DNA of 32,000 nucleotides from Sinorhizobium meliloti (GTDB taxonomy: Bacteria; Pseudomonadota; Alphaproteobacteria; Rhizobiales; Rhizobiaceae): assembly GCF_017876815.1 (NCBI RefSeq), contig NZ_JAGIOS010000003.1, positions 480,001 through 512,000 on the forward strand, in the 5' to 3' direction. Every line of letters begins with the position of its first letter. The stretch's first letter is position 1. The position numbers were made by a program, and so were the translations under genes. Below the pieces are notes generated by a model. The model saw only the letters and a list, made by a program, of their open reading frames with translations, was not told where the DNA came from and did no database searches. Of this stretch, positions 5,618 through 31,185 are shown piece by piece.

Positions 5618-5887
5618 ATGCCCGAACTCCGACACAACGAACCAACACCGCCAAGGGAAGCTAAGCTCTTTCGAAATAATAGAAGTCAGGCTGTACGTAT
5701 CCCCGCTGATTTTGAGCTTCCCGGCGATCGGGTGATGATCCATCGGGACGGAGATCGGCTGATAATAGAGCCGGTGCTCCGCAAGAACTTGCTGGAGGTG
5801 CTGGCTGGTTTGGAGCCGCTCGGGTCTGAAGATGAGTTCCCCGACGTTGACGAAACCCTGCTGCCGGTGAAGGAAATCGACCTGTGA
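5618..5887 (+). CDS. vapB: VapB-type antitoxin (AbrB/SpoVT fold)
   Basis: 89-aa ORF with the motif AKLFRNNRSQAVRIPADFELPGDRVMIHRDGDRLIIEP. Its stop overlaps the start of the PIN gene (GTGA). Confidence 0.85.
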   Translation: MPELRHNEPTPPREAKLFRNNRSQAVRIPADFELPGDRVMIHRDGDRLIIEPVLRKNLLEVLAGLEPLGSEDEFPDVDETLLPVKEIDL

Positions 5888-6303: not shown

Positions 6304-6456
6304 AGCCAAAGGCGCTCAATGCTCTTGCCGACTTCGAGCAAGGGGAGAAACGGCATGGCGAATTCGCTGACTTCGTGCTGATTGACGGTAGTAGAAAAGG
6401 TTTATCCCGGGCTCAATGTTGTGGTGGCGCCGAACAATATTCATATGGGTGAGGTG

Positions 6457-6870
6457 TCAGCTGCATTGGCAATTCGCCTTCTCAAGGATGTGAAGTGAAC
6501 AGCAAAGATCGCGATTGTAGACCGAGATCCGGGTTTGCAGATGGTCAAATTTCAACATCGGCTTCAAGGGATCCCGATCGATTGAATTGATGCGGTCGCC
6601 ATTTGAGCCCTCGTTCGTGCTTGGGCTCAAAACGATCTTGCCTGCGATCGGCTGCGGGAAGCCTTCAAAGATCGTGAAGGCGGTCAGCCCGTCCTGCGGA
6701 CCTTCTTCGTCGACGAACAGCGTGTGCCGCTCGTCGAACCGTACGACTTCCAGCAGGCGGCAGCCGATAATCTCGTAAAGCGGCCGGATGCCCAGATCGA
6801 CCTGAAGCGCTACCGGCTTAAAAATCGTGGTTTCCGGGTCCAGCACATAAGCCGTGTTTGCTCTGACCAT
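6457..6870 (-). CDS. hypothetical protein, DUF3846-like
   Basis: 137-aa ORF. The N-terminal 90 aa (AYVLDPETTIFKPVALQVDLGIRPLYEIIGCRLLEVVRFDERHTLFVDEEG...PIAGKIVL) follow the pattern I recall for the plasmid/ICE-borne DUF3846 family. The C-terminal tail is atypical. Confidence 0.5.
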   Translation of the reverse strand: MVRANTAYVLDPETTIFKPVALQVDLGIRPLYEIIGCRLLEVVRFDERHTLFVDEEGPQDGLTAFTIFEGFPQPIAGKIVLSPSTNEGSNGDRINSIDRDPLKPMLKFDHLQTRISVYNRDLCCSLHILEKANCQCS

Positions 6871-7849: not shown

Positions 7850-8035
7850 GGGATACCCACAACCAATAACTGAAGCGCTCGGCGCCCTGGCCACTTTACG
7901 GTGACCTAAATACTCAAGCCTAGGCCGTTCTTAAGGGTCCGCGTGAGTTCGCAGGTTCGGCTCAACTCCGCCCGCAACGACCGCCTTTCGAAACAATGGT
8001 TTAAGTTCCATAATCTATCTTATGTGATCCGCTTG

Positions 8036-12590: not shown

Positions 12591-12603
12591 TAGCTTTGAC
12601 ATT

Positions 12604-12788
12604 GATGTAGCCGGGGGTAAATTCTATTTTCAAGTGCGACATGGCAATAAAAACAACGGCCTGTCCCTTGGAGATTTTTGCATGTCGCAGTGCTATTTGC
12701 AGCTCACCCTTCCCGATCGCCGACGCGTGCATCAGCTTCTCGAACGCAAGGTGCCGATTGCTGAGATCGCCCGCCCTCAGTCGGCATC
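12604..12788 (+). mobile_element. truncated left end (about 185 bp) of a second, diverged IS30-family element
   Basis: 12604-12788 aligns base for base, with scattered mismatches, to 8034-8225 of the complete IS30 element. The alignment covers the IRL, the leader and the first 40 or so codons (MSQCYLQLTLPDRRRVHQLLERKVPIAEIARP...). Similarity stops abruptly at about 12788. Confidence 0.7.
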
Positions 12789-12890
12789 GGTTTGTCCTCG
12801 AGCCGACTGATCTCGCCAAGACCCTAAGCCGGCAAGAAGGTGATAGTCTGCGAACACCCCGCGGACGACCATTCTTATCAGCAGATCCAT
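12786..12890 (+). pseudogene. sliver of a third ISNCY-like transposase gene (internal fragment, frameshifted)
   Basis: Reading across one frameshift gives RFVLEPTDLAKTL/AGKKVIVCEHPADD. This parallels KVMFILDPTDRAAALAGKKVVVCDYPDGRLEI of the copy B transposase. The match is short, so confidence is low. Confidence 0.4.
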
Positions 12891-12922
12891 TGTCTGCAGG
12901 CGCTCGCCGCATGCACTTGGCT

Positions 12923-13627
12923 TCAAATGAGCCTGAGCTTTGTCGCCAGTGCCGTCGCCTGCGCCTGTGTGCTCGCACCGAGCTTCCTGCGAGCGTTGTT
13001 CATATGGAAATTCACATTCGCATAGGTCATGTTCTCGATGGTGGCGATGTCACTCATGGATTTGCCCTCGGATGACCACTTGAGCATCAGCGCCTGTTTG
13101 GCGGTCATGCGGATGCTCGGTTTTGCCGTGGGTTCAATTTGCGCTTGCTCGATCCTCACATGAAGCTGAGCGACCGCCGTCGCAGCTGCGACCGGATCGA
13201 GATCGAGATTCAGCGAAAGGCACGGCTTGTGCGACGCAATGGTCAGCATCGCGATGCGCCGGAATGCAGTCGCCACCGGAATCGTGATGCCCGATCGGAT
13301 GCCGAACCCGGCAGCATCCAGGTAGAACTGCCGAACACGCCTCGACTTGACTTTCCGCGTGTTTTCCGAAGACCAAGTGAACGCCCTCATCGTGGACTTG
13401 GCGATCAGGACCACGGGATCAATCTCACTGAAGCTCTTGGAGAAATACCGATCCTGCCATTCGGGTGAATAATTCGAGACAGCGAATGTTCCGACCGGCT
13501 GAAGATTGAGGTAGGCGTAATATTCGAAGCCGAGTTCCCGTGCGAGTTCGGTGAGTGCTCCATTGAACATCTCCCTGGTGCGCGCTACCGCTGTAACATC
13601 GATTAGCTTCTGAAACCAAATCTCCAC
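12923..13627 (-). CDS. traR: LuxR-family AHL-responsive transcriptional activator, TraR-like
   Basis: 234-aa ORF collinear with Agrobacterium TraR as I recall it. Shared features are WFQKLIDVTA..., GFEYYAYLNLQP, NYSPEWQDRYFSKSFSEIDPVV, FTWSSE, FGIRSGITIPV, and a C-terminal HTH ending in ATALATKLRLI. The symbol reflects similarity only; no tra/trb genes are nearby. Confidence 0.88.
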   Translation of the reverse strand: MEIWFQKLIDVTAVARTREMFNGALTELARELGFEYYAYLNLQPVGTFAVSNYSPEWQDRYFSKSFSEIDPVVLIAKSTMRAFTWSSENTRKVKSRRVRQFYLDAAGFGIRSGITIPVATAFRRIAMLTIASHKPCLSLNLDLDPVAAATAVAQLHVRIEQAQIEPTAKPSIRMTAKQALMLKWSSEGKSMSDIATIENMTYANVNFHMNNARRKLGASTQAQATALATKLRLI

Positions 13628-16279: not shown

Positions 16280-16450
16280 TGCAAATTCCGAGGCAATCCG
16301 CCCCCTGATTCCGAAATGATCTCGCCCCCCAATTCCGAGAAATAGTCGCCCCCTGATTCCGAGATGATGCCGCCCCCATCGGAAAGCATCTGGCGTGGGT
16401 GTTCTGCTGGTGTGAAGTTTCTTCCTTCGACGTGACGAGGAAGGAACGGG

Positions 16451-18001
16451 ATGCCTGCGGAGAGACTGGAGATGCGGCGTGTCCGCGAGATATTGAGATA
16501 TCGCTTCGAACAAGGACTTGGCCACAAGTCGATCGCGGTTCGGGTTGGAGCTGCGCCATCGACGGTGCGCGAGACGCTTCGGCGTGCGGCCATTGCGGAG
16601 CTATCGTGGCCGTTGGGTGACGACATCAGCGATGCAGTCCTGGAAGCGGCGCTTTACAAGGCAGCCGGGACGAAGACGGGTCATCGTCGGAGCCCTGAGC
16701 CGGACTGGACGCAGGTCCACCGCGAGCTGAAGCGCAAGCATATGACGCTGCAGATCCTTTGGGACGAATACATCAGCCGTTATCCGGAGGGCTATCGTTA
16801 CAGTCGCTTCTGTGACCTCTACCGCGGCTGGGCGATGAAGTTGCCTGTGACGATGCGGCAGGATCACGCGGCCGGCGACAAGCTGTTCGTCGACTACGCC
16901 GGCGACACGGTCACGGTTGTCGTTGATCGGCTGTCCGGCAAGACACGGCAGGCGCACCTGTTCGTGGCGGTTCTGGGAGCATCCAGCCTTTCATATGCGC
17001 AGGCACGTTGGAGCGAGACGCTTCCCGACTGGATTGAATGCCATATCCTGGCGCTGGAGTTCTTTGGCGGTGCGCCAGCCTTGCTGGTTCCCGACAATGC
17101 CAAGGTAGCGATCATCAAGGCCTGCCACTTCGATCCCCAGGTCAACCGGACGTATTGCGGGATGGCGGCCCATTATGGCAGCGCCGTCTTGCCGACGCGG
17201 CCGCGACGCCCGCGGGACAAGGCGAAAGTGGAAGCTGCGGTTCGTATCGTCGAACGTTGGCTGTTGGGCCGGCTGCGCCATCGCATCTTCTATAGTTTGG
17301 CCGAGGTCAATGCGGCGATTGGCCAATTGCTCCATGATCTCAATGATAAGCGCGTTCTGCGCCGTGTCGGCGCCACGCGCCGCCAATTGTTCGAGGAGCT
17401 TGATCGTCCGGCTTTGCGACCGCTGCCTGTCGAACGTTATGTCTTTGCCGAATGGCGTATCCGGCGCGCCGGGCTGGATTATCACGTCGAGATCGAGCGG
17501 CACTATTATTCCGTTCCCTATCGCTTTGCCCGCGAGCAGGTCGAGGCTCGTATCACCGCCAATACGATCGAGATCTTCCACAAGGGCGAGCGAATTGCCG
17601 CTCACCGGCGCTCCAGCGGCAACGGCAAGCACACGACGATCCCCGATCATATGCCCTCTGCGCATCGCCGCTTTGCCGACTGGACGATTGAACGGATTCA
17701 ACGCGAAGCCTCTGCGATGGGGCCGGATGTTGCGCTGTTGTGCGAGCGCATTCTTGCCGACAGGCCTCATCCCGAGCAGGGCTTTCGAGCTTGCCTCGGC
17801 ATCATCCGCCTCAACAAGAGCTTCGGCCGCGACAGGGTCAATGCCGCTTGCGGCCGTGCGTTGGAGATTGGCGCACGAACCTATGGCTCGGTGCGATCCA
17901 TCCTCGACAATCACCTTGACCGGACGGCTGCCTCAAATGGAGCGGCGCCGCATGAACCGATCCATCACGCCAACATCCGCGGACCTCGCTATTACCACTA
18001 A
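16451..18001 (+). CDS. istA: IS21-family transposase IstA
   Basis: 516-aa ORF with an HTH N-terminus (MRRVREILRYRFEQGLGHKSIAVRVGAAPSTVRETLRR) and a DDE core (LFVDYAGDTV...VAVLGASSLSYAQ...LLVPDNAKVAI). Confidence 0.95.
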   Translation: MPAERLEMRRVREILRYRFEQGLGHKSIAVRVGAAPSTVRETLRRAAIAELSWPLGDDISDAVLEAALYKAAGTKTGHRRSPEPDWTQVHRELKRKHMTLQILWDEYISRYPEGYRYSRFCDLYRGWAMKLPVTMRQDHAAGDKLFVDYAGDTVTVVVDRLSGKTRQAHLFVAVLGASSLSYAQARWSETLPDWIECHILALEFFGGAPALLVPDNAKVAIIKACHFDPQVNRTYCGMAAHYGSAVLPTRPRRPRDKAKVEAAVRIVERWLLGRLRHRIFYSLAEVNAAIGQLLHDLNDKRVLRRVGATRRQLFEELDRPALRPLPVERYVFAEWRIRRAGLDYHVEIERHYYSVPYRFAREQVEARITANTIEIFHKGERIAAHRRSSGNGKHTTIPDHMPSAHRRFADWTIERIQREASAMGPDVALLCERILADRPHPEQGFRACLGIIRLNKSFGRDRVNAACGRALEIGARTYGSVRSILDNHLDRTAASNGAAPHEPIHHANIRGPRYYH

Positions 18002-18013
18002 GGAGAACGAAAG

Positions 18014-18751
18014 ATGCTTGCCCATCCAACACTGGATAAATTGAATGCCATGGGCCTGGCCGGCATGGCAAAGGCCTTTGGCGAACTTGTTGCCAACGGC
18101 GAAGCCGAACATCTCTCGCACGCCGAATGGCTCGGACTGCTGCTCGAACGGGAGTGGAGCTCCCGTTACGATCGGAAGCTTGCGGCACGCCTCAGGTTTG
18201 CCAAGCTTCGCCACCAGGCCACCCCAGAAGATGTCGACTATCGCGCCGACCGCGGCCTCGACCGTGCTCTCTTCATGAAGCTGCTCGGTGGCGACTGGAT
18301 CAACGCCCATGACAATCTGGCCATTTGCGGACCCTCGGGTGTCGGAAAGAGTTGGTTGGCTTGCGCTCTCGGCCACAAGGCTTGCCGAGACGATCGCTCA
18401 GTTCTCTATCAGCGTGTCCCAAGGCTGTTTGCCCAGCTTGCGCTCGCGCGTGGTGATGGCCGCTACGCCCGCCTGCAACGAACCTTGGGCCATGTTCAGC
18501 TCCTGATACTGGATGATTGGGGGCTCGAGCCGCTCAACGAACAGGCCCGCCACGACCTGCTGGAAATCCTCGAAGATCGCTATGGACGCAAATCAACGAT
18601 CATTACCAGCCAACTTCCCGTGTCCGCATGGCACGGCGTCATTGGCGACCCAACCTACGCCGATGCCATACTCGACAGGTTGGTCCACAATGCCCACCGC
18701 ATCGAATTGAGCGGCGATAGTCTGCGCCGAAATCTACCGCGCAAAGCTTGA
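18014..18751 (+). CDS. istB: IS21-family helper ATPase IstB
   Basis: 245-aa ORF with Walker A (CGPSGVGKSW) and Walker B (LLILDDWG). It starts 12 nt after the istA stop. Confidence 0.95.
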   Translation: MLAHPTLDKLNAMGLAGMAKAFGELVANGEAEHLSHAEWLGLLLEREWSSRYDRKLAARLRFAKLRHQATPEDVDYRADRGLDRALFMKLLGGDWINAHDNLAICGPSGVGKSWLACALGHKACRDDRSVLYQRVPRLFAQLALARGDGRYARLQRTLGHVQLLILDDWGLEPLNEQARHDLLEILEDRYGRKSTIITSQLPVSAWHGVIGDPTYADAILDRLVHNAHRIELSGDSLRRNLPRKA

Positions 18752-18877
18752 CACCTCGCCTGAATGAACTGACAACAATCATCGCCTGCAGACCCCACTA
18801 AACAGGGGGCGAGATCATCCCGGAAACCGGGGGCGCAATCATCTCGGAACAAAGGGGCGGCTTCATCGGAATCGGCA

Positions 18878-19155: not shown

Positions 19156-19776
19156 TTAAACAGCGACGGTGTGGCGAGTCCCTGGTCGAGCGGCACCAGC
19201 GCGAATCCGATCAAGACTTCCGACATCGGCAGAAAGAATTCCGGCAACGGCCAACGAGTTGCCAATGGGGCACGGCGGGCCGAGGCGCTGCATCGGCCAC
19301 CCGGCACGCTTCAGAATGCGCTCGAAACGCAGATCAGTTGCGGTGACAATCTCGTGGTACCCGTTCGCCATCGACCATTCGATGATGCCGGCGAACATCA
19401 TCAGCGTGGTCTTGTGGAGAGGCCCTGGCGTTCTGTGCTGGTCGAGCGCAGTGTCGACACAAAAGCGCGAGCTTTCGACCATGCCTGGGTGAGCGTTCAA
19501 ACCGCGCGCTGGCAGGAGCTGCGGAAAGGTATTGGCGAGCATTGTCGGGCCTGTAGCTGGCAGAAGCCTTGCACAACCCGCCACCGCACCTGTGGGGGAA
19601 ACAGCTAGGATGTAGGTCGGGTCGAATTGATCGTAGGCGTCGGCTTCACGCCCGTCCCTTATCTCTACGTCCCAATCCAGCCTGTCGCCAAAGACGCAGG
19701 CACGCAGTCGGTGCATCGAATCAATTAGGTCAGCAAATTCTCCACGCGCCGCGGCCGGTACAGCCAGTATCTCCAT
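19156..19776 (-). CDS. acyl-homoserine-lactone synthase (LuxI family)
   Basis: The ORF track extends to 19917, but the family-typical start is ATG 19776. MEILAV...FADLIDSMHRLRACVFGDRLDWDVEIRDGREADAYDQFDPTYILAVSPTGAVAGCARLLPATGPTMLANTFPQLLP...VESSRFCVD...TATDLRFERILKRAGWPMQRLG carries the conserved LuxI blocks (206 aa). Confidence 0.9.
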   Translation of the reverse strand: MEILAVPAAARGEFADLIDSMHRLRACVFGDRLDWDVEIRDGREADAYDQFDPTYILAVSPTGAVAGCARLLPATGPTMLANTFPQLLPARGLNAHPGMVESSRFCVDTALDQHRTPGPLHKTTLMMFAGIIEWSMANGYHEIVTATDLRFERILKRAGWPMQRLGPPCPIGNSLAVAGILSADVGSLDRIRAGAARPGTRHTVAV

Positions 19777-19950
19777 CACCAATCTCCGAAGAAATCTCGC
19801 TCGTAGACTACTGAACACGAGTCTTGGCGCTCGGGCGACTAATAAAGTTAGTAGTCGAGTGTTTGACCGAAGCGTGCATGAATATCGCGGATATGAGTAG
19901 CTCGGAACGGAAGGCAATCAAGGACGAAGGTCAAAGGGAAAGGAAGTCGA

Positions 19951-20273
19951 TGTACAAGCACACCGCCGAAGCTCTCGTTTACGTAACGCACACCGATTGC
20001 GCCATAGAGAGCCTTTCTGTACGCCTCGGAAAGTATTGTGGAGCAATCAGGCACTTCGAGACCGGCAGGATACTCGACTTCGGCGAAGGTGAAGCGATCA
20101 TAAGATCGACTGAGGGCGCACTTTTGTTTCACGTCTCCGCACGAGACATCCTCACATTTTATGGCATTCAGGCGCTTTTGCAGGGGAGCCTGTCCGTCAT
20201 CGCGACGTTTCCTGGTGAAGCCGTCGAATGGCGCCCGGTGGACAGGGCGCCATTCGACCCTATGAGAGGATGA
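19951..20273 (+). CDS. small hypothetical protein divergent from luxI (possibly DUF2218-like)
   Basis: The ORF track starts at 19824. The internal ATG at 19951 follows GGAAAGGAAG. The 107-aa product is MYKHTAEALVYVTHTDCAIESLSVRLGKYCGAIRHFETGRILDFGEGEAIIRSTEGALLFHVSARDILTFYGIQALLQGSL...VEWRP. The family call comes from memory of the DUF2218 pattern and is weak. Confidence 0.5.
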
Positions 20274-20523: not shown

Positions 20524-21281
20524 ATGGCAGCAAACCGAAGCAGTCCACCGATGGTCGACAACCGTAGACTGTCATTGTCCCTGAGGACGCTGCAGTCAGC
20601 GAAGCACCGCCGGGACCTTCACCCTGCACTGGACGAGCTTTGCGCGCGATACGGCCTGTCGCATATGACATTCCTTGTGGTTTGCAGCGGAGGCAGGTCG
20701 GGTTTGTACCCCGATTACTGCACGACCTATCCCGGTAAGTGGACTGAGATATACGTAAACAAGCGTTATTTCGACATAGACCCGGTAATTGACGTCATTC
20801 GGTGGGATTTCTCCCGGTGGACTGGTCCTCTCTCGATCGGCGGTCAGCACAGGCGTACCGTTTATTTAAGGAAGCGCGTTCGTACGACATCGGGCCCCAT
20901 GGCTTGACGATCCCAATCCGAGGCTCGAAAGGCGAACGCTGCCTCTTTTCCGTGAGCTCGAACCTGCCCAAGCGCGATTGGTCGCGGCTACGCACTTCGA
21001 GCATTCACGAGCTGCAGATCCTTTCTCACTATCTTCATGAGACGACGCTTTCGGCCAGCGGTCTGCGAGAGGTCGGCCGTTATCGGACCCTCTCCAGGCG
21101 CGAAACTCAGTGCCTGCAGCTGCTTGCAACGGGCCGGATTTCCAAGCAGATAGCAGCGGACCTCGGCATCTCAGAAAACGCCGTGAAACTGTACCTGCGT
21201 TCGGCAAGGATCAAGCTGAATGCTGCTACAAGTTATCAGGCCGTCGCCAAGGCGAGCTTCCTCGAGTTAATCAAGTTCTGA
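20524..21281 (+). pseudogene. LuxR-family AHL-receptor gene interrupted by a single frameshift at about 20799-20805
   Basis: ORF 20524..20907 carries the autoinducer-binding N-terminal half (...TTYPGKWTEIYVNKRYFDIDPVIDVIR). ORF 20802..21281 continues in the -1 frame (GFLPVDWSSLDRRS...GLTIPIRGSKGERCLFSV...) through the C-terminal HTH (LSRRETQCLQLLATGRISKQIAADLGISENAVKLYLRSARIKL). Confidence 0.8.
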
Positions 21282-21341
21282 GCGCGCTCGATCGAGGATT
21301 CGGGACCTGTATGTCTCCATCCGGCTTTCCCGACAGCATCA

Positions 21342-21361
21342 ATCTACCGAATTCGGTAGAT
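21342..21361. promoter_or_regulatory. perfect 20-bp palindrome, candidate lux-box-type operator
   Basis: ATCTACCGAATTCGGTAGAT is perfectly self-complementary. It lies 60 bp after the luxR-type stop and about 125 bp upstream of the operon start (21483/21489). It has the length and dyad symmetry of LuxR-family boxes. Confidence 0.5.
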
Positions 21362-21482
21362 TGGCTGCCCGCTCGCAAGGGTCCACACATAGCAATCACA
21401 AACTCACGCACGGCAGGGGCTAGCGCAACCGAAACATCTCGCCGAGAGCCGAGATGAAGCGCACCGCCGATAATGTCGGGAG

Positions 21483-22556
21483 GTGGTTATGGTGAATCGA
21501 CTAACGATTGAACGCTGGCGAAACGCGCCCAGGCTTACATCGTTCGCAGCGTTCTTCGAAAGGACCGCCAGCGGACAGGGCGGAGCACCGGACCTTGCCG
21601 AACCTCAAATCGACATGAGCCTGCTCGATTTTGATCTGGAGAGCGCAGTTTTCGCGGATACGCATCGGCGTCTTTGGGGACACTTCGACAGCCATTACTT
21701 CGCCAGCATTCCCTATAGGCTCGAAGAGGAATGCCGCCTGGGTGCTGCGATACTTTCCCTCGGCCTGAGGGCCTGGGCACGCAGCGGCTCCCTAACGACA
21801 ATATACACGCTGGGCACAGGCACCGGTTGCTTTGCGCGCACGCTTGCCACGCTTGGCAATGGTCGCATCGAGGCGCTCTGCTGCAGTCCAACGGCAGCCA
21901 ATCGGACATCATTCCTTGCGAACCGGGGGAGCGAACACGCGCACTTCTTCCACGGCCCGTTCTTTGAGTTGGACGACGATCGATACGCGACCGACGAGGA
22001 TCTTCTCCCATTTCGGGACGGATTTGACGTGCTGTTGGAAGACACGACGTTTCAGATGTACGACCGTGACCGGCTAAAGCAGCTGGAGTTCGTCGTCCCC
22101 CGCATACGGCCTGGCGGTCTTCTCGTCCAGGTGCAGAAGCTCGCGCATGAAGACCGCGACGTCTATGAGGAGCGCGAACGACAGAAGGACGAGCTTTTTA
22201 AGTCCCGGTTCTTCTCGACCGGTCACATCTCCGAGAAAAAGGATGAAGTCCTGAACACGATGACGGATCTTCAAGTCGATGTGGCAACTACCGTAGCCGC
22301 TCTGGGAGCGTTTTTCCGATACTCAGTGCTAACCTGGAACAGCGGGAATTTCTACACAATCGTGTCATCCAACTCCCGGGCTTCCGTCTTGGAACTGATT
22401 TCGCTGATGTTAAAGCCCGCAATTCCACCAGCCTATTGTTACGAACATTTGCCAGCCGCTGTCGTCGATACGGAGGTGGAAGGGTTGGCTCCTGATTTGA
22501 CGTGGCGCAGGGCGAGTACCATGACGCTGCTCGCGCCCAGGCGCTTGGCATCGTGA
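21483..22556 (+). CDS. class I SAM-dependent methyltransferase-fold protein, CmoA-like layout
   Basis: 357-aa ORF. The probable start is ATG 21489, 5 nt after GGGAGG. It has motif I IYTLGTGTGCF, then VLLEDTTFQMYD and RIRPGGLLVQVQK. The tail FKSRFFSTGHISEKKDEVLNTMTDLQVDVATTVAALGAFFRYSVLTWNSGNFYTIVS parallels the CmoA tail [23 protein letters not shown]...FNFGSLVA. Confidence 0.8.
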   Translation: MVMVNRLTIERWRNAPRLTSFAAFFERTASGQGGAPDLAEPQIDMSLLDFDLESAVFADTHRRLWGHFDSHYFASIPYRLEEECRLGAAILSLGLRAWARSGSLTTIYTLGTGTGCFARTLATLGNGRIEALCCSPTAANRTSFLANRGSEHAHFFHGPFFELDDDRYATDEDLLPFRDGFDVLLEDTTFQMYDRDRLKQLEFVVPRIRPGGLLVQVQKLAHEDRDVYEERERQKDELFKSRFFSTGHISEKKDEVLNTMTDLQVDVATTVAALGAFFRYSVLTWNSGNFYTIVSSNSRASVLELISLMLKPAIPPAYCYEHLPAAVVDTEVEGLAPDLTWRRASTMTLLAPRRLAS

Positions 22557-22557
22557 A

Positions 22558-23964
22558 ATGGCGGCCACCCCAGAGGTCAGCGAGCATTGCAGCGCAGGCG
22601 ACGTGCGAAGCGCGCTGTCTGCCTTAATGCCGCATCTTACCTCCTATTGGGAGCGTCCCCTTCGAGATTACGCGTCGGTTGCCCACCACGTCGAGAAATT
22701 CCATTCCGAGTGTTGCGTGCGTCGTCATGCAATGGAGCTGCTCTGCCACTGCATAGAACGAGCGGGGCGCAAGTCCGGTTACGATCTTGAGGAAGCTCGA
22801 AGCGCCGGCCTTCAGTTGATGGCGTCGCCGGTACTGCAGACCGGTCCGCACTGCATGCTGCTGATCGAGCCGGATGCGTTCTACACGCATCTGTTCAGTC
22901 TGTTGGGCCTGTGCGCCAATAGCCGGCAATGGTACATCACGTATCACGCCTCGACAGTCAGCTTCTCGGAAAAATCAAAGAAAGGCCCCGGATGGCTCTG
23001 GCTTGAAGGCGAGCCCCTGAACGTCTTCGGCTTACCGCGGAGCCGGATGGATTCATTAAGCATCTGCGGTCTGAATGGTCCCTATCGCTTCGCTTTCTCG
23101 AATGCCAAAGGCGATCCGGCACCAAACGCCTCTGCCGTCCATCTCTTCGCCGAACTGCCGACGGTTGAATTTGCTTCTGCGGCCGACGCAATCAGGGCGG
23201 CCAACCAAACGCTTTGGCGTCGCAAGCTCCCCTCCCCCATCAGGCTACTTCAGCTCGATGATTTCGACATCGCAGACCTGGTCGCTGACCATCTCGACGA
23301 CCAAGAGTCCTGGATGTCGGCTCGTTTCTTCGGAGACAAGGTTGCCGAAAGCATCCTGGTTGCCATGGATCGCTTAAGCATTGGACCCTGGAAGGGTTGG
23401 GTCCGCAGGACGACCGATCTCTTCTGGCGGCTGGAAAAAGGCAGGGTTGTTCCGCTCCGGCTCCAGGAAAATGCCCTCAGGGCCGCGGCCCCGTCCGGTT
23501 TCGAATTGGAGTTCCGGCCGGATAATATCGCAGCGGGGCTTCGGCAACGAGCGATCGTGCCCAGCCTCTATACAGTGTTCCTAGTGACTTCCATTCTGCC
23601 CGGTGTGAGGGCACTTGGGGGATGTCGGCAGACCATCTACTACCCACTCATGCGCTATCTTACTGCGGTCGGCCTTGAGCAGTCGGGTAATTCCGATCTC
23701 TTGGCCGAACTGCGTGGGGACGACCGACCCGGGCTTTGGGGCCACCGTGTCCTGAAGCCCGCTGGCGGTTATCCATTCCAGGAGATCGGACTTTTCGGAC
23801 AAAGCCCGAGGTCCCTTTCAGAATACGCGCAGATCCCTTTGGTGCAGTCGAGCGGTGATCTAGGAAGTTTCACCGGGGATCCGATCTGGGCGAACCTGTC
23901 GAAGCAAATCGCCAGCGGTGTCATCAACTCGGGTTCCGTCGAGTGGCAGTGGTCGGGATCGTGA
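22558..23964 (+). CDS. hypothetical protein, no family recognised
   Basis: 468-aa ORF whose ATG lies 1 nt after the upstream stop (translational coupling). It has normal coding-like composition and a His/Cys-rich patch near the N-terminus (HHVEKFHSECCVRRHAMELLCHC). No recognisable catalytic motif, signal peptide or obvious transmembrane pattern, apart from one hydrophobic stretch (SLYTVFLVTSILPGV). Confidence 0.75.
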   Translation: MAATPEVSEHCSAGDVRSALSALMPHLTSYWERPLRDYASVAHHVEKFHSECCVRRHAMELLCHCIERAGRKSGYDLEEARSAGLQLMASPVLQTGPHCMLLIEPDAFYTHLFSLLGLCANSRQWYITYHASTVSFSEKSKKGPGWLWLEGEPLNVFGLPRSRMDSLSICGLNGPYRFAFSNAKGDPAPNASAVHLFAELPTVEFASAADAIRAANQTLWRRKLPSPIRLLQLDDFDIADLVADHLDDQESWMSARFFGDKVAESILVAMDRLSIGPWKGWVRRTTDLFWRLEKGRVVPLRLQENALRAAAPSGFELEFRPDNIAAGLRQRAIVPSLYTVFLVTSILPGVRALGGCRQTIYYPLMRYLTAVGLEQSGNSDLLAELRGDDRPGLWGHRVLKPAGGYPFQEIGLFGQSPRSLSEYAQIPLVQSSGDLGSFTGDPIWANLSKQIASGVINSGSVEWQWSGS

Positions 23965-23975
23965 GCAAGTGACGG

Positions 23976-24590
23976 ATGGCCGAGCGGCTTCGCTGCTGGA
24001 GCGTTTACATGCCATGCGATCAGATGCCCAGGTGGCGGGATACGGTGTTTCTCAGCCGGAACTTGGTGGAGGTCGATGTGTCGATTGAAGAAGGGGCGGT
24101 AATCAAGCGCCTATCAGTCGAGGACGTGGACGTGTTTCGCCGCATACGGCTGGAGGCGCTTTCACACGAACCGTTTTCGTTTGCGAGCGTATTTGACGAT
24201 TGGCTCCATCTCTCCGACCGTGAATGGCGCGAGCATCTTGACCAGCCAGTTTTTGTCGCGTTCCTGAACGGGCAGCCCGTCGGCATGATGGGGCTCAAGT
24301 TTGAGCGTGCGAGGAAAATGGTGCATCGCGCGAAGCTTGTCAGCGTCTATGTGCGGAAAGGCGAACGAGGGACCGGAATTGCAGCAAACCTTTTGCATAA
24401 CGTTACAGAGCATGCACGAGATCACGGAGTTCTGCAGTTGGAGCTTGCGGTAAATGCAGAAAATTCGGCAGCGATACGCTTCTATCAACGCCACGGTTTC
24501 GTCGAAGTTGGCCGCATTCCAAACGGCTGTCTTGGTCACGGTACGGAGAACGATGAGTTGATCATGGTACTCCGCTTGAATAATCGCTAG
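23976..24590 (+). CDS. GNAT-family N-acetyltransferase
   Basis: The GNAT core includes FVAFLNGQPVGMMGL, VYVRKGERGTGIAANLL (the acetyl-CoA Q/RxxGxG/A motif) and AIRFYQRHGFVEVG. The more likely start is the in-frame GTG at 24078, 5 nt after GGAGG (170 aa). Confidence 0.85.
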   Translation: MAERLRCWSVYMPCDQMPRWRDTVFLSRNLVEVDVSIEEGAVIKRLSVEDVDVFRRIRLEALSHEPFSFASVFDDWLHLSDREWREHLDQPVFVAFLNGQPVGMMGLKFERARKMVHRAKLVSVYVRKGERGTGIAANLLHNVTEHARDHGVLQLELAVNAENSAAIRFYQRHGFVEVGRIPNGCLGHGTENDELIMVLRLNNR

Positions 24591-24979: not shown

Positions 24980-25255
24980 CTATTTCTTGAAACGAACACC
25001 CACGCCGCCACCGTTTTCCGGAATGAACTCAATACCAGCGCCTTCGAGAGCAATTCGGATCAGCTTTAGATTTGCTGCCGTAATTGTCGGTGGCCCATCT
25101 TCTGCCTCCGCCCGTCGTATCGTCGAGAGACCCACACTAGCAGTACTTGCTAGCTCTTCGGCGCTCCATCGAACTAATGCCCTCGCCGCGCGAATTTGAG
25201 CACCCGTTATTACACTCATAAATTTCGGTTTTCCGGTTGAACTTTTTTCGTTCAT
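24980..25255 (-). CDS. XRE-family HTH transcriptional regulator
   Basis: MSVITGAQIRAARALVRWSAEELASTASVGLSTIRRAEAEDG...LKLIRIALEGAGIEFIPENGGGVGVRFKK is a small HTH family common in rhizobia. The start is ambiguous: ATG 25255 (MNEK...) or 25219 (MSVITG...). The track start at 25321 is unlikely. Confidence 0.75.
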   Translation of the reverse strand: MNEKSSTGKPKFMSVITGAQIRAARALVRWSAEELASTASVGLSTIRRAEAEDGPPTITAANLKLIRIALEGAGIEFIPENGGGVGVRFKK

Positions 25256-25344
25256 GTGGCACTTAAGGTTCCAGATCGGCCGTGCTCGGTGCTCGCAACA
25301 CCGAACACAGCCTGACCACAACCAAGCTTACGGGAGCTCGGATC

Positions 25345-25902
25345 ATGGCTGATTCCGACAATAGCAGAACTGTGTCTACGGTCACCCGGGGAGATTTTCA
25401 ATCTTTCGTGGCGGCGTCTTTACCCACATATCAAGAGCTTACTCAGACGAAACAGCTATCCTGGGGTGCGTGCGATGCCGATCCGGCGCTCGTAGTTTGG
25501 CACCAATGGTGCGCCGCCTGGCAGCGTCTGAGCGAATCAAGTTTGCTACAACAGCGGCTCGAAAGATCCCTCTTTCCAGTGGTTTTGCCACCATCGGTTG
25601 AGCAAGCCGCAGGTTCTCGAACCTACTGCGAGGCCCTCGAAGCTGAAGATCGCGCATCCATCGCGGAGGAGCAGGCCGCGGAAACCTTGTGGAAGACGCC
25701 GGCGGTGTCCGTCGCAGGCGCCGCCGCCAAACTCCATGCCGCCATGACCAAATGGCAGCCCTCGCCCACAGGCCAAGAAGAGCCTTGGCCGCAAATCCGC
25801 ATCGTCATCGCCGACCTCCTGAAAATCGATATGGCCTCAGTTGCGAGCGGACGGGATTGCCTGTCTACGGCCGACCTCCGACCCGAGTTTCAAAGCAGCT
25901 GA
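25345..25902 (+). CDS. hypothetical protein divergent from the XRE gene
   Basis: ATG 25345 follows GGGAG. The 185-aa product contains DPALVVWHQWCAAWQRLSESSLLQQRLERSL...CEALEAEDRASIAEEQAAETLWKTPAVSVAGAAAKLHA...EEPWPQIRIVIADLLKI. This resembles uncharacterised rhizobial plasmid proteins I recall. The function is unknown. Confidence 0.5.
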   Translation: MADSDNSRTVSTVTRGDFQSFVAASLPTYQELTQTKQLSWGACDADPALVVWHQWCAAWQRLSESSLLQQRLERSLFPVVLPPSVEQAAGSRTYCEALEAEDRASIAEEQAAETLWKTPAVSVAGAAAKLHAAMTKWQPSPTGQEEPWPQIRIVIADLLKIDMASVASGRDCLSTADLRPEFQSS

Positions 25903-26061: not shown

Positions 26062-27657
26062 ATGAAACTGGGAAGCCCATTTCGGCCACGCCTGCTTTCC
26101 GCGCTTCTGTTCTCCATCTTCCTCGGGAGTGCTTCGGCGACGCCGGCGCAAGAACGCGGAGAGCTTCGGATCGCTACATCGTACAAGCTGATGACGCTGG
26201 ATCCGCAATATGCCAATCTCAACGAGAACACCTCACTGCTCTCCCATATTTACGAGCGGCTCGTCTACCAGGACGAGAATCTCGAATTGAAGCCTGGGCT
26301 CGCCACCTCCTGGCGGCCACTGTCCGACACGCAATGGGCGTTCAAGCTCCGTGACAAGGTCCGCTTCCATGACGGCTCGGCCTTTGACGCCGATGATGTC
26401 GTCTACACGATCGAGCGCATCCGGGACTTCCTCAAACCGCCGAGCGGCGGCTTTCGCTCCTATGTCAGCGGCATCAAGTCGGTCTCGGCACCCGATCCCC
26501 TCACAGTGCTGATCGAAACCGACGGCGCGGTCCCCAATCTGCCACTCTTCTTCTCCTCCCTCTTCGTGATGAACCGGCCCTCTGAGGGGGTCGAGACGAC
26601 CGAGGACCTCAACGCGGGTCACCCGCCCAACGGCACTGGACCCTATCGGTTCGAGAGCTGGAGTTCCGGCGAGAGCCTGAGACTTGCCCGGAACGACGAC
26701 TACTGGGGCGGCAAACCTGCCTGGTCCAAGGTTACCTTCCGGGTGATCGAGAACCCGGCAGCGCGCGTGGCGGCGCTCAGCACGGGAGAGGTCGATGTGG
26801 CCGACGCGATCCCGGCCCGCGACGTTGCCTCCTTGAAGGAGCGCGGCGCCAGGGTCGCGAGCGTCGGTGCTGCACGTGTCAACTTCGTACAGTTCGACGT
26901 CGCGCGAGACACGCTTCCAGGAGTGACTGACAAGTCGGGCGAACCGATCGCCAATCCGTTCAAGAACCCGCTCGTGCGCCGAGCGCTTGCGCTGGCGACT
27001 GACCGGGGCATTCTCGTCGACAAGATTCTCGCCGGTTATGGCACGGCCGCCGCCCAGGTCTTTCCGAATGGTCTGCCGGGCACCTCGGCGAAATTGCTGC
27101 CTGAGGCTCCAAACTATGACGAAGCAAAGATGCTTCTCGCGAAGGCCGGTTTCCCGGACGGCTTCAACCTTGTTCTTGCCGGGCCGGCGGGCCGTTACCC
27201 CGGTGACGCCGAAAGCCTTCAGGCAGTCGCCCAGAGCTGGGCCCGCATCGGCGTCAATGCTCAACCAGCGGCCGCGCCTTTCTCGGTATTCAACACCAAG
27301 CGGGCGGCAGGGGATTACGGCGTCTGGTACGGCGGCACCTCCGGCGAGGCGGTCGACATCATTCTCCATACTCTGCTGGCATCCCCGGACCCAGAGCGCG
27401 GGACCGGTGCGTTGAACTTCGGGAAGTATCGCAACGAGGCCTTCGACGCGATGCTCGCAAGGGCGGAAAGCATTGCGGTAGGGCCGGAGCGCAATGCGGC
27501 ACTCGCGCAGGCGACGGAACTCGTGATGGCCGACCAGCCGATCATACCGCTCTACCACTTCCATCACATCGTCGGTTACGGCTCGCGGATCGGCTCCTAT
27601 GTCCTGCACCCCCGCGGCTGGACAACCGCGATGCAGACGCTTCCGGCGATGGAGTAA
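26062..27657 (+). CDS. ABC transporter substrate-binding protein, family 5 (peptide/nickel, DppA/OppA-like)
   Basis: 531-aa ORF with a signal peptide (LLSALLFSIFLGSASATPAQ) and SBP_bac_5-type blocks (LVYQDENLELKPGLATSW...WAFKLRDKVRFHDGSAFDADDVVYTIER). Confidence 0.9.
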   Translation: MKLGSPFRPRLLSALLFSIFLGSASATPAQERGELRIATSYKLMTLDPQYANLNENTSLLSHIYERLVYQDENLELKPGLATSWRPLSDTQWAFKLRDKVRFHDGSAFDADDVVYTIERIRDFLKPPSGGFRSYVSGIKSVSAPDPLTVLIETDGAVPNLPLFFSSLFVMNRPSEGVETTEDLNAGHPPNGTGPYRFESWSSGESLRLARNDDYWGGKPAWSKVTFRVIENPAARVAALSTGEVDVADAIPARDVASLKERGARVASVGAARVNFVQFDVARDTLPGVTDKSGEPIANPFKNPLVRRALALATDRGILVDKILAGYGTAAAQVFPNGLPGTSAKLLPEAPNYDEAKMLLAKAGFPDGFNLVLAGPAGRYPGDAESLQAVAQSWARIGVNAQPAAAPFSVFNTKRAAGDYGVWYGGTSGEAVDIILHTLLASPDPERGTGALNFGKYRNEAFDAMLARAESIAVGPERNAALAQATELVMADQPIIPLYHFHHIVGYGSRIGSYVLHPRGWTTAMQTLPAME

Positions 27658-27663
27658 GCGGTC

Positions 27664-28641
27664 ATGGGCATGATCTCGGTTGCATTGGGAAGGCTGGGCC
27701 AAGCCTTCCTGCTCCTCATCGCCATGTCGTTGATCGGCTTTATCGGCATCCACAGCGTCGGCAATCCGGTCTTCAACGTCGTCAACATCGAAACAGCTAC
27801 GCCCGAGGATATTCACGCCGCAACGATCGCGCTCGGTCTTGATCAGCCGATCTGGCGCCAATACCTCGCATTCATCGGCAATGTCGTCAGCGGCAACTTC
27901 GGCACCTCCTACATCTATCATCTGCCCGCCTTCGAGTTGGTGATGAGCAAACTGCCGGCAACGCTTGAGCTCGCCTCCATCGCGATGCTGATCGCCGCAC
28001 CGCTCGGGACGGGACTCGGACTCCTTGCCGGCCGACGCAGCGGCACGCTGTTCGACAGAACCCTGGTCAAGGCGAGCGTGTCGGCGCTGAGCATCCCTTC
28101 CTTCTGGCTGGCGATGATGCTGATCCTCGTCGGCGCTATCCTGACCGGCTGGTTCCCGTCCGGCGGCCGCGGCTTGACTGCGAGCTTCCTGGGTCAGGAA
28201 TGGAGTTTTCTGACTGCAAATGGATTATGGCACCTCGTGCTTCCGGCCTTGGCACTGGCGATACCGAACATCGCTCTGATTGCCCGCCTATCGCGATCGG
28301 GAACAATCGAAGTCGAGAACCTGGATTACACAAGGTTTTGCCGCGCCAAGGGGCTTTCCGCGCGAAGGATCCTGTTCCGCCACACCCTTCCGAACATCAG
28401 CGTGCCGATCGTGACGATCATCGGACTGCAGTTCGGCGGCATGCTCGCCTTTGCCGTGGTGGTGGAAACGATCTTTTCGTGGCCGGGCGTCGGCAAGCTT
28501 CTGATCGACTCCATCCAGCTCCTCGACCGGCCAGTGGTGATGGCGACGCTGACCGTCATTGCCGTCGCCTTCGTCGCGCTGAATGCCCTCGTCGACTTGT
28601 TCTATGCCGTGCTCGACCCGCGCGTGCGCCTGTCTTCATGA
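27664..28641 (+). CDS. ABC transporter permease (DppB/OppB-like)
   Basis: 325-aa multi-transmembrane ORF with the EAA-loop region (ARAKGLSARRILFRHTLPN). Confidence 0.9.
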   Translation: MGMISVALGRLGQAFLLLIAMSLIGFIGIHSVGNPVFNVVNIETATPEDIHAATIALGLDQPIWRQYLAFIGNVVSGNFGTSYIYHLPAFELVMSKLPATLELASIAMLIAAPLGTGLGLLAGRRSGTLFDRTLVKASVSALSIPSFWLAMMLILVGAILTGWFPSGGRGLTASFLGQEWSFLTANGLWHLVLPALALAIPNIALIARLSRSGTIEVENLDYTRFCRAKGLSARRILFRHTLPNISVPIVTIIGLQFGGMLAFAVVVETIFSWPGVGKLLIDSIQLLDRPVVMATLTVIAVAFVALNALVDLFYAVLDPRVRLSS

Positions 28642-28654
28642 AAGGTGACCCGTC

Positions 28655-29530
28655 ATGAAAGCCCACATCGTAAGCGCGCTGAAGAGGCGCCGACACGGAC
28701 CGGTGCTGACCGCGTCCAAGCTGCTGCTGGCAAGCTACATCCTGATTGCCATCGCTGCACCCTTGATCGCGCCGCAAAATCCCTATGACCCGCTGCAGAT
28801 CTACGGCTGGGAGGCGTCCTCGCCACCCGGTACACGTGGCAGCGGCGGCTATCTCTACCTGCTTGGAACCGACGGTCTCGGCCGAGACATCGTCAGCACC
28901 ATTCTCTACGGCCTGCGCATCAGCCTGGTGGTGTCGATCGTCAGTAGCGCGCTCGCCGCGCTGATCGGGCTGACCGCCGGCGTCAGTGCCGCGTATTTCG
29001 GGAAATGGGTCGACATCGCGATCATGCGGCTGGTCGACCTGCAGCTCAGCCTGCCGACGATCCTGATTGCGCTCATCGCCATCGTCACGCTCGGGCCGGG
29101 CATAGACCGGATCATCCTGGCGTTGATCATCGCGCAATGGGCGACCTATGCCCGGATCGCCCGCGGCGTCGCACTCAGCGAAGCGAACAAGCCTTACATG
29201 GATGCGGCCCGCTTGATGCGGCTGCCAACGTCCCGGATCATCGTCCGGCACCTGCTTCCGAACAGCATCGCGCCCGCCGTCACCTTGATACCGATCGAGG
29301 TCGGCCATGCCGTCGCACTCGAGGCGACCCTCTCCTTTCTTGGGCTGGGCGTCCCGATCGACAAGCCCTCGCTCGGCTCGGCGGTCGCAAACGGATTCCA
29401 GTACCTCCTGACCGGCCAATACTGGATCAGCCTGTTCCCGGGCCTCGCCCTCTTCGGCCTGATCGCCAGCATCAATCTCGTCGGCGAAGACGTTCGCCGC
29501 AGCCTCGATCCAAGGAACCATTCGCGATGA
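28655..29530 (+). CDS. ABC transporter permease (DppC/OppC-like)
   Basis: 291-aa ORF with LGTDGLGRDIVSTILYG and an EAA-type loop (YMDAARLMRLPTSRIIVRHLLPN). Confidence 0.9.
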   Translation: MKAHIVSALKRRRHGPVLTASKLLLASYILIAIAAPLIAPQNPYDPLQIYGWEASSPPGTRGSGGYLYLLGTDGLGRDIVSTILYGLRISLVVSIVSSALAALIGLTAGVSAAYFGKWVDIAIMRLVDLQLSLPTILIALIAIVTLGPGIDRIILALIIAQWATYARIARGVALSEANKPYMDAARLMRLPTSRIIVRHLLPNSIAPAVTLIPIEVGHAVALEATLSFLGLGVPIDKPSLGSAVANGFQYLLTGQYWISLFPGLALFGLIASINLVGEDVRRSLDPRNHSR

Positions 29531-31185
29531 CCGTGGAACACGTGACGACACCCCTGCTGCGGGTTGAGAACCTTGGCCTTCGCCATGTCTCGGGCTCGGC
29601 CACAACACAAATCCTGTCCGACGTGAGTTTCGAACTCGGGCGAGGCGAGATCCTCGGCATCATCGGCGAGTCCGGCGCCGGCAAATCGACCGTCGGCAAT
29701 GCCATCCTCGGGCTGCTTTCGCCCGAGTTCCAGCAGACCTCCGGAACAATCGAGTTCGATGGCAAGGCGATCGACGGGATGACTGCCGACGAGCGCCAGA
29801 CGCTTCGAGGACGGCGGATATCGGCGATCTTCCAGGACCACACCGCCTCGCTCGATCCGCTGATGAGCGTCGGCGCCCAAGTCGAGGAAACCTGCCTTGC
29901 GCTCGACAGCTCGCTTTCCAGGCGCGAGGCGCGTGCCCGCGCGGTTGATCTGCTTGCCCGCGTCGGCATTCCCGAACCGGAGCAGCGATACCGCAATTAC
30001 CCGCACCAGTTCTCCGGCGGGCAGAGGCAACGCGTCGTCATCGCCATTGCGCTTGCCGGCTCTCCTGACATCATCATCGCCGACGAGCCGACCTCGGCGC
30101 TCGATGCGACGGTTCAGAAGCAGGTTCTGGAACTTCTAAAGATACTTGTCGACGAAACCGGTGTCTCGATCATCCTCGTCACCCACGACATGGGCGTGAT
30201 CTCCGAAATCACCAACCGGGTACTCGTCATGCGAAAGGGCCAGGTGGTGGAGGCGGACCGCACGACCGCCATTCTCGATCAGCCCGGCCATGACTACACG
30301 AAGAAGCTGCTCGCCGCTGTTCCAAGGCTTCGAATCCCGACACGCATTGATAGCGGCCAAGCAGGCTCTTCCGCCCTAGACGGCGACCAGAACCCGCTTC
30401 TGGTCGCGGAAGGCCTTTCGAAACAGTTCGCGCCGCAGGGTTTTGCCTGGGGCGTCGGCCGGGGCAAGCCGAGATTCGGCCTGCGCGACGTCGGTATTCG
30501 CCTGGCGCGCGGGTCGATCACCGGGATCGTCGGCGAGAGCGGCAGTGGAAAGACGACGTTCGGCCGCATCCTCGCGGGCCTCGACAAGGCGCCGACCGGC
30601 AGGATCACAATCGGGGAACACGCCTTCGACGTTTCGCGAAGCGGCCGCCGCAGCGGTCTTCTCGGCCGCGTCCAGATGATCTTCCAGGATCCATCCGTCT
30701 CCCTCAACCCCCGCATGACCATCGGCGAGACGCTGGACGAGAGCATCCGCTTCGGCGGGAGGATCCGTTCCGGCGAAGAGCCGGCGGAAGTGGCCGCAAT
30801 GATGGATCGGCTTGGTCTTCCGCGAAGCCTGCTCGCCCGCCATCCGCATCAGCTCTCCGGTGGCCAAAAGCAGCGTGTCTGTATCGCTCGCGCCCTGTTG
30901 GCACGGCCTGAGATCATCGTCGCGGACGAGCCGACATCCGCGCTCGACGTCTCGGTTCAGGCCGAGATCGTCGGTCTCCTGAAGGACACCATAGCGGAGC
31001 GGGCGATGACAATGGTCTTCATCTCCCATGACCTCGCGATCGTTCAAGCGATGTGCAGCTCCGTCTACATCTTCAAGGACGGCCGGATCGAGGATTTCGG
31101 GCCCACCGAGTTCATCTTCTCGCGATCCGACAATCCCTACACCCGCGCGCTCATCAACGCCCGCCCCCAGCGGTTCACATGCTGA
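29527..31185 (+). CDS. fused double ATP-binding protein of the ABC importer (DppD/DppF-like)
   Basis: The start ATG at 29527 overlaps the upstream stop (ATGA). There are two complete cassettes: GESGAGKST...FSGGQRQR...[11 protein letters not shown] and GESGSGKTT...LSGGQKQR...[11 protein letters not shown]. The 726-aa track ORF from 29005 is an out-of-context N-terminal extension over the permease gene. Confidence 0.9.

Follow-up and report, generated by a model that had tools for sequence, protein, structure and literature searches.

We analysed a 32,000-nucleotide stretch of Sinorhizobium meliloti contig NZ_JAGIOS010000003.1 (assembly GCF_017876815.1; hereafter the window), which is 99.9-100% identical to the pSymA-type megaplasmids of SM11, RU11/001 and Rm41. 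Within it, three co-directional open reading frames (ORFs) on the forward strand (21489-24590; genes 1, 2 and 3) stand behind a palindrome and a LuxR-type regulator gene. Our preferred interpretation, which we regard as reasonably probable, is that this locus is a quorum-sensing-controlled small-molecule biosynthesis cassette, found on rhizobial megaplasmids and conjugative plasmids, with a product that is probably an S-adenosylmethionine (SAM)-modified, amino-acylated small molecule. The evidence comes from the conservation of the gene pair and its putative operator across genera, from the residues retained by the LuxR orthologues and from the homology of gene 2 to AbmF, an enzyme of albomycin biosynthesis.

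The cassette is compactly organized, with the TGA of gene 1 and the ATG of gene 2 exactly 1 nt apart. The ORF of gene 1 opens at GTG 21483 and ends at 22556, although the likely start is ATG 21489, which is preceded by GGGAGG and gives a protein of 355 aa as in the orthologues. The ORF of gene 3 opens at ATG 23976, its first ~30 residues are not conserved among orthologues and a GGAGG Shine-Dalgarno sequence lies 5 nt upstream of an internal GTG; because of this conservation pattern and the Shine-Dalgarno sequence, GTG 24078 is the likely start, leaving a gap of about 101-113 nt after gene 2. A previous interpretation made from the letters of the window (the sequence-only reading) had described three tightly packed co-directional genes, with 1 nt between the first two and at most about 110 nt before a GTG start of the third, in agreement with what we found. 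It had begun the operon at 21342, a coordinate that falls within the dyad and is no gene start. Its dyad of lux-box size is indeed a perfect palindrome, with a length of 24 bp instead of 20 bp, and the LuxR-type gene does lie directly upstream, albeit as a frameshifted and not an intact copy.

From a scan of one genome per species we obtained 58 loci, which belong to Sinorhizobium/Ensifer, Rhizobium, Agrobacterium, Shinella, Neorhizobium, Pararhizobium, Phyllobacterium, Mesorhizobium, Brucella and other genera, are patchily distributed and in many cases sit on named plasmids. Genes 1 and 2 were adjacent in all 58, a pairing that spans more than 10 genera and extends down to 42% identity. An orthologue of the LuxR gene occurred directly upstream on the same strand in 39 loci (44 within ~3 kb), the GNAT gene (gene 3) directly downstream in 29, the LuxR gene together with all three genes in 24 and a luxI gene within 10 kb in 6. 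Because the pair was present in every locus and the GNAT gene in only half, the conserved unit appears to be a LuxR-box-controlled two-enzyme core to which the GNAT is an optional addition. The idea of a conserved trio that travels with luxI and luxR therefore holds for the gene 1-2 pair and for luxR, but not for the GNAT or luxI; the link to quorum sensing, formerly drawn from position only, is strengthened by a LuxR gene and a lux-type dyad that are conserved across genera. In ~16 Rhizobium and Agrobacterium loci (including L028, L033, L034 and L058) the module comes immediately after traA-traF-traB-traH in the same orientation, an arrangement located at -8 kb to -2 kb relative to gene 2, and the LuxR-gene 1-gene 2-GNAT module may be read through from this DNA transfer and replication (Dtr) operon or be tied to conjugation. 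On one metagenomic contig (L067; features at 1694-2668 (-), 5104-6495 (+) and 9822-11048 (-)), a gene 1 homologue of 40% identity is paired with a gene 2 homologue in the company of an AraC regulator, a major facilitator superfamily (MFS) transporter, an Xre-type helix-turn-helix (HTH) gene and a CapA (PGA_cap) gene. CapA may be part of the system, as a CapA gene also follows the ATP-binding cassette (ABC) transporter in S. meliloti.

The palindrome consists of the half-sites CAATCTACCGAA and TTCGGTAGATTG (21340-21363) and occupies the space between the LuxR stop codon and gene 1, with its centre ~137 nt upstream of the gene 1 ATG. By simple arithmetic, such palindromes are expected by chance ~0.002 times per 32 kb, and this is the sole site of its type in the window. 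Its outer arms, CAATCT-N12-AGATTG, were recovered upstream of gene 1 with at most two mismatches in 47 of the 58 loci, a match reached by 1.5% of 410-nt windows drawn at random from these loci. Wherever such a site was found it lay ~105-206 nt upstream of gene 1, and its consensus (CAAtCTnnCGAAwTCGnyAGATTG) is by far the best-conserved intergenic block. Four loci without a directly upstream LuxR gene carry a luxI-luxR pair ~8 kb downstream of genes 1-2, with exact copies of the box before luxI (L009, 18987-19010; L010, 18937-18960; L041, 18785-18808; L043, 18922-18945) and with luxI then followed by an orthologue of the cassette LuxR gene. Since the same box precedes luxI in these four genomes, the gene 1-2 operon shows the pattern expected for one target of the cassette LuxR clade, with the box as the predicted recognition site. 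The arrangement also suggests an ancestral luxI-luxR circuit from which luxI was lost in most lineages. In a divergent Mesorhizobium/Brucella clade the box is absent and the LuxR gene mostly absent.

All 38 adjacent LuxR orthologues examined keep nine canonical residues of AHL (N-acyl-homoserine lactone)-responsive LuxR proteins (W57, Y61, D70, P71, W85, G113, E178, L182 and G188, numbered on what we take to be the TraR reference sequence), the single exception being L182F. The orthologues thus appear to retain the canonical AHL-binding and DNA-binding residues and are predicted to be AHL-type regulators. The cassette LuxR was also considered as TraR itself and rejected (NF010444, 29.4 bits versus a cut-off of 250). 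In the window, a single nucleotide is missing near 20804 (20800-20810), where GGTGGGG of ml66 is shortened to GGTGGG, and this places the Pfam domains Autoind_bind and GerE on two overlapping ORFs; the gene is intact in both ml66 and Rm41 (99.9% identical). The frameshift is either a strain-specific pseudogene mutation or an assembly error; with its LuxR gene frameshifted, the strain of the window probably carries a silent or deregulated cassette.

A weakly conserved -10-like element follows the box by ~20-29 nt, because of which the box centre would lie near -44, as at class II LuxR-dependent promoters, with transcription predicted to begin near 21395. An Rfam search in and around the operon detected no riboswitch or small RNA, and the 5' leader folded no better than shuffled sequence. 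Known systems in which a LuxR solo stands next to its target (CarR-carA, QscR-phz and PluR-ppyS; PMC10134790) likewise place the LuxR gene directly upstream of a biosynthetic operon, and the cassette resembles them in its dyad operator at the lux-box position and, in most loci, in having no adjacent luxI. It differs from them in the operator itself, CAATCT-N12-AGATTG, and in its set of enzymes.

Gene 2 gave no Pfam, NCBIfam or PDB sequence match, family profile searches included, and weak matches to HisF and Mre11 were judged noise and these candidates dismissed. By BLASTP it aligned with P0405, the Streptomyces globisporus AbmF orthologue, at 27% identity over 309 aa (E = 2e-19), and hhalign joined the rhizobial gene 2 profile to an AbmF-group profile over 399 columns (99.8% probability, E = 2.8e-29). 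P0405 sits between a deoxynucleoside kinase gene (AbmG) and a carbamoyltransferase gene (AbmE) in the complete S. globisporus albomycin cluster, and is identified as AbmF because this is the position of abmF. Both families share the motifs PV[LI]Qxx.H after the first strand, QLD[DE]...H and LPG..GG..Q..Y. Gene 2 is accordingly a full-length AbmF homologue with a recognisable fold, and not the 468-aa orphan of unknown fold that the sequence-only reading had seen. AbmF condenses a 6'-amino-thionucleoside with seryl-adenylate supplied by AbmK, a seryl-tRNA synthetase (SerRS) (PMC9032320, PMC8323819).

The AlphaFold2 model of gene 2 (predicted local distance difference test (pLDDT) 86; predicted template modelling score (pTM) 0.90) had a single significant structural match in Foldseek, to the bacillithiol cysteine-adding enzyme BshC (4wbd; E = 7e-6, TM-score 0.45), followed by the class I lysyl-tRNA synthetase 1irx. 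The modelled fold resembles the Rossmannoid of BshC and the class I aminoacyl-tRNA synthetases (aaRSs), a core characteristic of enzymes acting on activated amino acids. Gene 2 has no detectable sequence similarity to these proteins (PDB profile search and Pfam BshC), the HIGH and KMSKS motifs of class I aaRSs are not recognisable in it and the TM-score is modest.

At E <= 1e-3, an exhaustive profile search with the gene 2 family recovered 652 representative clusters, of which 209 reached E <= 1e-10. Almost all of these superfamily members are 430-480 aa long, and none of 10 sampled members contained a Pfam domain. A distant relative, P0350, is 51% identical to P0405 and belongs to a proteobacterial cluster with two radical-SAM enzymes, a methyltransferase, a serine hydroxymethyltransferase-like enzyme, a deoxynucleoside kinase, a carbamoyltransferase, a pyridoxal phosphate (PLP) enzyme and a SerRS paralogue, a gene set equal to the albomycin-like set of PMC8323819. 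Elsewhere in the superfamily, aaRS paralogues stand beside the gene (SerRS in L065, 10740-12041, and L068, 4670-5953; methionyl-tRNA synthetase in L072, 9452-11227), and in L064, L071 and L072 the gene overlaps an upstream class I/II aminotransferase gene to which it is translationally coupled. Other neighbours include PLP enzymes, ATP-grasp ligases, a nonribosomal peptide synthetase (NRPS), asparagine-synthetase-like enzymes, TauD dioxygenases and MFS exporters. These neighbourhoods hint at a shared scheme, with an aaRS as the source of the donor and the amine produced by an aminotransferase. The family appears to occur almost exclusively in natural-product-type clusters, that of albomycin among them, and we place gene 2 in a natural-product enzyme family because of its AbmF homology and the biosynthetic neighbourhoods of its relatives. 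This supports the earlier proposal that the locus is a small-molecule cassette and not housekeeping.

Like abmF, gene 2 lies in a short co-directional biosynthetic operon, but the cassette has no aaRS paralogue, no radical-SAM, PLP, deoxynucleoside kinase or carbamoyltransferase genes and no siderophore NRPS. The partner of gene 2 is a CmoA/CysG-like protein, unrelated to AbmI and under LuxR control, and its host is a rhizobial plasmid where that of albomycin is an actinomycete chromosome.

Gene 1 yielded no above-threshold Pfam match. Weak sequence matches to CmoA structures (PDB 4iwn/4gek, E = 0.005-0.009) cover residues 105-296. The AlphaFold2 model (pLDDT 81, pTM 0.85, with 43 homologues in the alignment) has the carboxyl O-methyltransferases CysG and BelI and the carboxy-SAM synthase CmoA as its best Foldseek matches (E ~3e-8, target TM-score ~0.7), the CmoA structures 4iwn, 4gek and 1im8 scoring between 4e-8 and 4e-7. 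The glycine-rich SAM motif LGxGxG (L108-G109-x-G111-x-G113) is invariant in the family, and the hidden Markov model alignment extends over the CmoA-type helical lid (residues 208-296), which contains an invariant K250. Gene 1 is thus modelled as a CmoA-like SAM-fold enzyme, and the earlier label is a fair one, borne out by Foldseek and by the weak CmoA sequence matches. It was rejected as CmoA itself, with a score far under the family cut-off (NF011995, 15.6 bits versus 285 and hence below the equivalog threshold), and also as an AbmI-type enzyme, the albomycin cytosine methyltransferase, to which it is unrelated. It resembles CmoA, CysG and BelI in overall structure and in the lid with K250, and differs from them by an extra N-terminus of ~100 aa, without counterpart in the matched structures, and by Ser/Cys in place of the ribose-binding Asp. 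The His-His-Asp metal motif carried by CysG and BelI (PMC11408123) is not evident among its invariant residues. Separately, residues 16-81 (21534-21725) weakly match the DUF4255 protein PDB 9r9n_B (E = 0.0035 with the single sequence and 0.014 with the profile), which may be chance.

Gene 3 is a clear GNAT, as had been proposed, with a Pfam Acetyltransf_1 match (E = 2e-19, 70.4 bits versus a cut-off of 20.7) and 29 GNAT matches in the PDB. The nearest solved structures are phosphinothricin and amino-acid-analogue acetyltransferases (for example, 1yr0 and 2ge3), and its NCBIfam relatives are phosphinothricin, methionine sulfoximine and arsinothricin N-acetyltransferases. All of these score far under their equivalog cut-offs (ArsN1a, 40.9 versus 170; phosphinothricin acetyltransferase, 18.1 versus 300), and the likeness to phosphinothricin and arsinothricin resistance enzymes is best read as resemblance only. 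The 3' part of the gene (24350-24578) is ~92% identical in DNA sequence to a GNAT gene on pSymB of Rm1021, 2011, SM11 and others, which suggests that the two are recent paralogues or have recombined. Among the matches listed, this pSymB paralogue was the one hit to Rm1021.

We propose the following mechanism. Expression would start from an activator-dependent promoter at which the 24-bp dyad, bound by the adjacent AHL-type LuxR, overlaps the -35 region. The conserved core of the cassette is the translationally coupled gene 1-gene 2 pair. Gene 1 may make or modify an amine-bearing acceptor, by methylation or by the transfer or alteration of another SAM-derived group. Gene 2, by analogy with AbmF, would form an amide between an activated aminoacyl group and the amino group of that acceptor, with an aminoacyl-adenylate, or possibly an aminoacyl-tRNA, as the donor. 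As the locus encodes no dedicated paralogue, a housekeeping aaRS would supply this donor. Where present, the GNAT might N-acetylate the product or an intermediate at a free amino group, for tailoring or for producer self-protection, as acetyltransferases of the phosphinothricin and microcin C type do.

Several points weigh against this proposal. A sigma-70 consensus scan of the region found no promoter and no convincing terminator, and our case for binding of the dyad by this LuxR and for AHL-dependent expression is drawn from conservation. The end of strand beta-2 in gene 1 carries an invariant C132-S133 and not an acidic Asp/Glu; because this Cys/Ser replaces the ribose-binding acidic residue, SAM binding is not certain. 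AbmF is the sole characterised member of its family and only 27% identical to gene 2, whose donor and acceptor could be quite different, and neither the window nor the set of conserved neighbours at the 58 loci includes an aaRS gene. Nor is any exporter or obvious precursor-supply gene conserved in the cassette across these loci, and two enzymes are few for a dedicated pathway. Finally, half of the loci have no GNAT, which counts against an obligatory role in immunity.

The features of the cassette and its surroundings are collected in Table 1.

Table 1. Features in and around the cassette, in coordinates of the window.
Feature	Position	Strand	Basis
TraI-type luxI (AHL synthase) gene	19156-19776	-	NF052393, 310 bits
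LuxR-type regulator gene (autoinducer-binding + GerE HTH)	20524-21281	+	Pfam Autoind_bind, GerE; frameshifted near 20804
24-bp dyad CAATCTACCGAATTCGGTAGATTG, conserved lux-type operator (putative)	21340-21363	.	Perfect inverted repeat
Gene 1, divergent class I SAM-dependent methyltransferase-fold enzyme (predicted), 355 aa	21489-22556	+	AlphaFold2 + Foldseek
Gene 2, AbmF-family protein (predicted), 468 aa	22558-23964	+	BLASTP, hhalign, Foldseek
Gene 3, GNAT N-acetyltransferase, ~170 aa, accessory	24078-24590	+	Pfam Acetyltransf_1; ORF opens ATG 23976
Small Xre-type HTH regulator	24980-25219	-	Weak HTH_3/HTH_31 matches
Conserved hypothetical protein, 206-aa ORF	25282-25902	+	No Pfam/NCBIfam match
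Peptide/opine-type ABC importer genes	26062-31185	+	Pfam SBP_bac_5, BPD_transp_1 x2, ABC_tran x2, oligo_HPY

Upstream of the cassette, a divergent pair (19156-20273) comprises the TraI-type AHL synthase gene and a gene of the SMa0974 family of conjugal transfer regulators. This module lacks the CAATCT-N12-AGATTG box, and in S. medicae the LuxR gene and the trio are present while traI and the SMa0974-family gene are absent; the adjacent module is specific to S. meliloti. An IS21-family insertion sequence (16280-18874; istA, 16451-18001; istB, 18014-18751) splits the response-regulator gene that in ml66 lies next to traI, and the alignment to ml66 breaks exactly at this element with an overlap of ~10 bp, consistent with a target-site duplication. 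Because the LuxR gene is frameshifted and the response-regulator gene is split, regulation of the whole region has probably decayed. A second LuxR-type gene, intact with Autoind_bind and GerE, lies ~6 kb upstream of traI among transposase genes (12923-13627, minus strand). Farther out, a cluster of transposase-like ORFs (8052-12408) includes an IS30-type ORF with HTH_38 and rve domains (8109-9110) and two ORFs with HTH_29/HTH_32 (9230-10609 and 10969-12396), and the window has extra insertions relative to ml66 at ~8024-9158 and ~11655-12899.

Downstream, an Xre-type HTH gene was found within 10 kb in 31 of the 58 loci and possibly belongs to an extended system; its PADLOC match is to a 'control protein' (E = 3.7e-7), and PADLOC gave no credible defence-system match. 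Divergent from it, the conserved hypothetical gene heads the ABC transporter genes, co-occurs in 21 of the 58 loci and has a shorter annotation in ml66. The importer comprises a family 5 binding protein, two permeases and a fused double ATPase, followed in ml66 by CapA-family and PepT genes. With its binding-protein gene within 10 kb in 32 of the 58 loci, the divergent clade (L053/L054) included, the importer is a conserved neighbour whose functional link to the cassette is putative.

A narrower version of our interpretation, tentative and on balance doubtful, is that the product is a Trojan-horse-type antimetabolite (an 'agrocin-like' compound, such as an inhibitor of the aminoacyl-nucleoside or amino-acid-analogue type) that is switched on at high cell density for competition among rhizobia, with the GNAT as the immunity enzyme and with the peptide ABC importer, CapA and PepT reflecting the import and breakdown or maturation of compounds that resemble peptides. 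AbmF builds the core of albomycin that inhibits seryl-tRNA synthetase, the GNAT is most similar to acetyltransferases conferring resistance to phosphinothricin, methionine sulfoximine and arsinothricin, and the cassette is plasmid-borne and patchily distributed. A peptide-type importer is linked in 32 of the 58 loci, with CapA and PepT beside it in ml66, but this linkage may be mere plasmid synteny. Half of the loci lack the GNAT, neither a resistant target paralogue nor an exporter is conserved, and nucleoside-modifying genes are missing, gene 1 being unrelated to AbmI. A different role for genes 1 and 2, which we consider unlikely, would be that of a synthase independent of LuxI that turns SAM into a new amino-acylated signal, of the homoserine-lactone type or otherwise SAM-derived, for the adjacent LuxR; the dyad before the synthase genes would then close a positive autoinduction loop. 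The architecture is luxR-luxI-like, with a mostly solo LuxR facing genes 1-2 and a lux-type box in front of them, and gene 1 has a SAM-binding fold. In addition, the substrate of AbmF is an amino acid linked to a nucleoside, which it acylates on the alpha-amino group, and LuxI carries out what is formally the same N-acylation on SAM. However, the same box precedes a true luxI beside an orthologous luxR in four genomes; the clade therefore has, or had, an ordinary AHL synthase partner, and genes 1-2 look like a target operon. The AHL-binding residues are all canonical and these bacteria carry other LuxI enzymes, while the enzyme pair is kept without LuxR or box in the Mesorhizobium/Brucella clade and is accompanied by an AraC regulator and an MFS transporter in L067.

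It is more improbable still, to the point that we give it little credence, that the genes are unrelated plasmid cargo, an ordinary methyltransferase and a stand-alone acetyltransferase among them, with no common pathway. In favour of this, the region is a mosaic with many insertion sequences, half of the loci do without the GNAT, which has a close paralogue on pSymB, and neighbouring modules vary by genus (traI/SMa0974 in S. meliloti versus traAFBH in Rhizobium). Yet genes 1 and 2 stay adjacent at every locus, in more than 10 genera and at identities as low as 42%, and their stop and start codons are coupled; the LuxR gene and the operator are conserved at a fixed position as well, and the pair recurs outside this context in L067. 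We therefore retain a quorum-sensing-controlled biosynthesis cassette as the preferred interpretation.

We found no description of this cassette or gene set in the published literature, in line with the earlier statement that no described rhizobial system with these genes was known to its author. None of the LuxR solos tabulated in a review of such regulators has this neighbourhood, although Rhizobiaceae-specific solo subgroups with conserved flanks are noted there (PMC10134790), and a survey of repABC plasmids does not mention the genes. The new rhizobial plasmid conjugation regulators RcgA and RcgR were ruled out as counterparts, being an alpha/beta-hydrolase and a membrane protein.

On our interpretation, the cassette is a biosynthetic operon under quorum-sensing regulation, centred on an enzyme family of which little is known. 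It gives a widespread 'hypothetical' gene pair of rhizobia, found in more than 10 genera and chiefly on plasmids of the symbiotic or conjugative kind, a testable role as a two-enzyme pathway tied to a defined LuxR clade and operator. It also extends the AbmF family well beyond albomycin, to hundreds of uncharacterised members without a Pfam model, with a cassette clade that appears to work without a dedicated aaRS. Were the pair a signal synthase after all, the dyad-controlled operon would be a complete and previously unrecognised quorum-sensing circuit on rhizobial plasmids. A product of either kind, signal or antimetabolite, would bear on competition among rhizobia, on the ecology of their plasmids and on the long-standing question of the targets of Rhizobiaceae LuxR solos.

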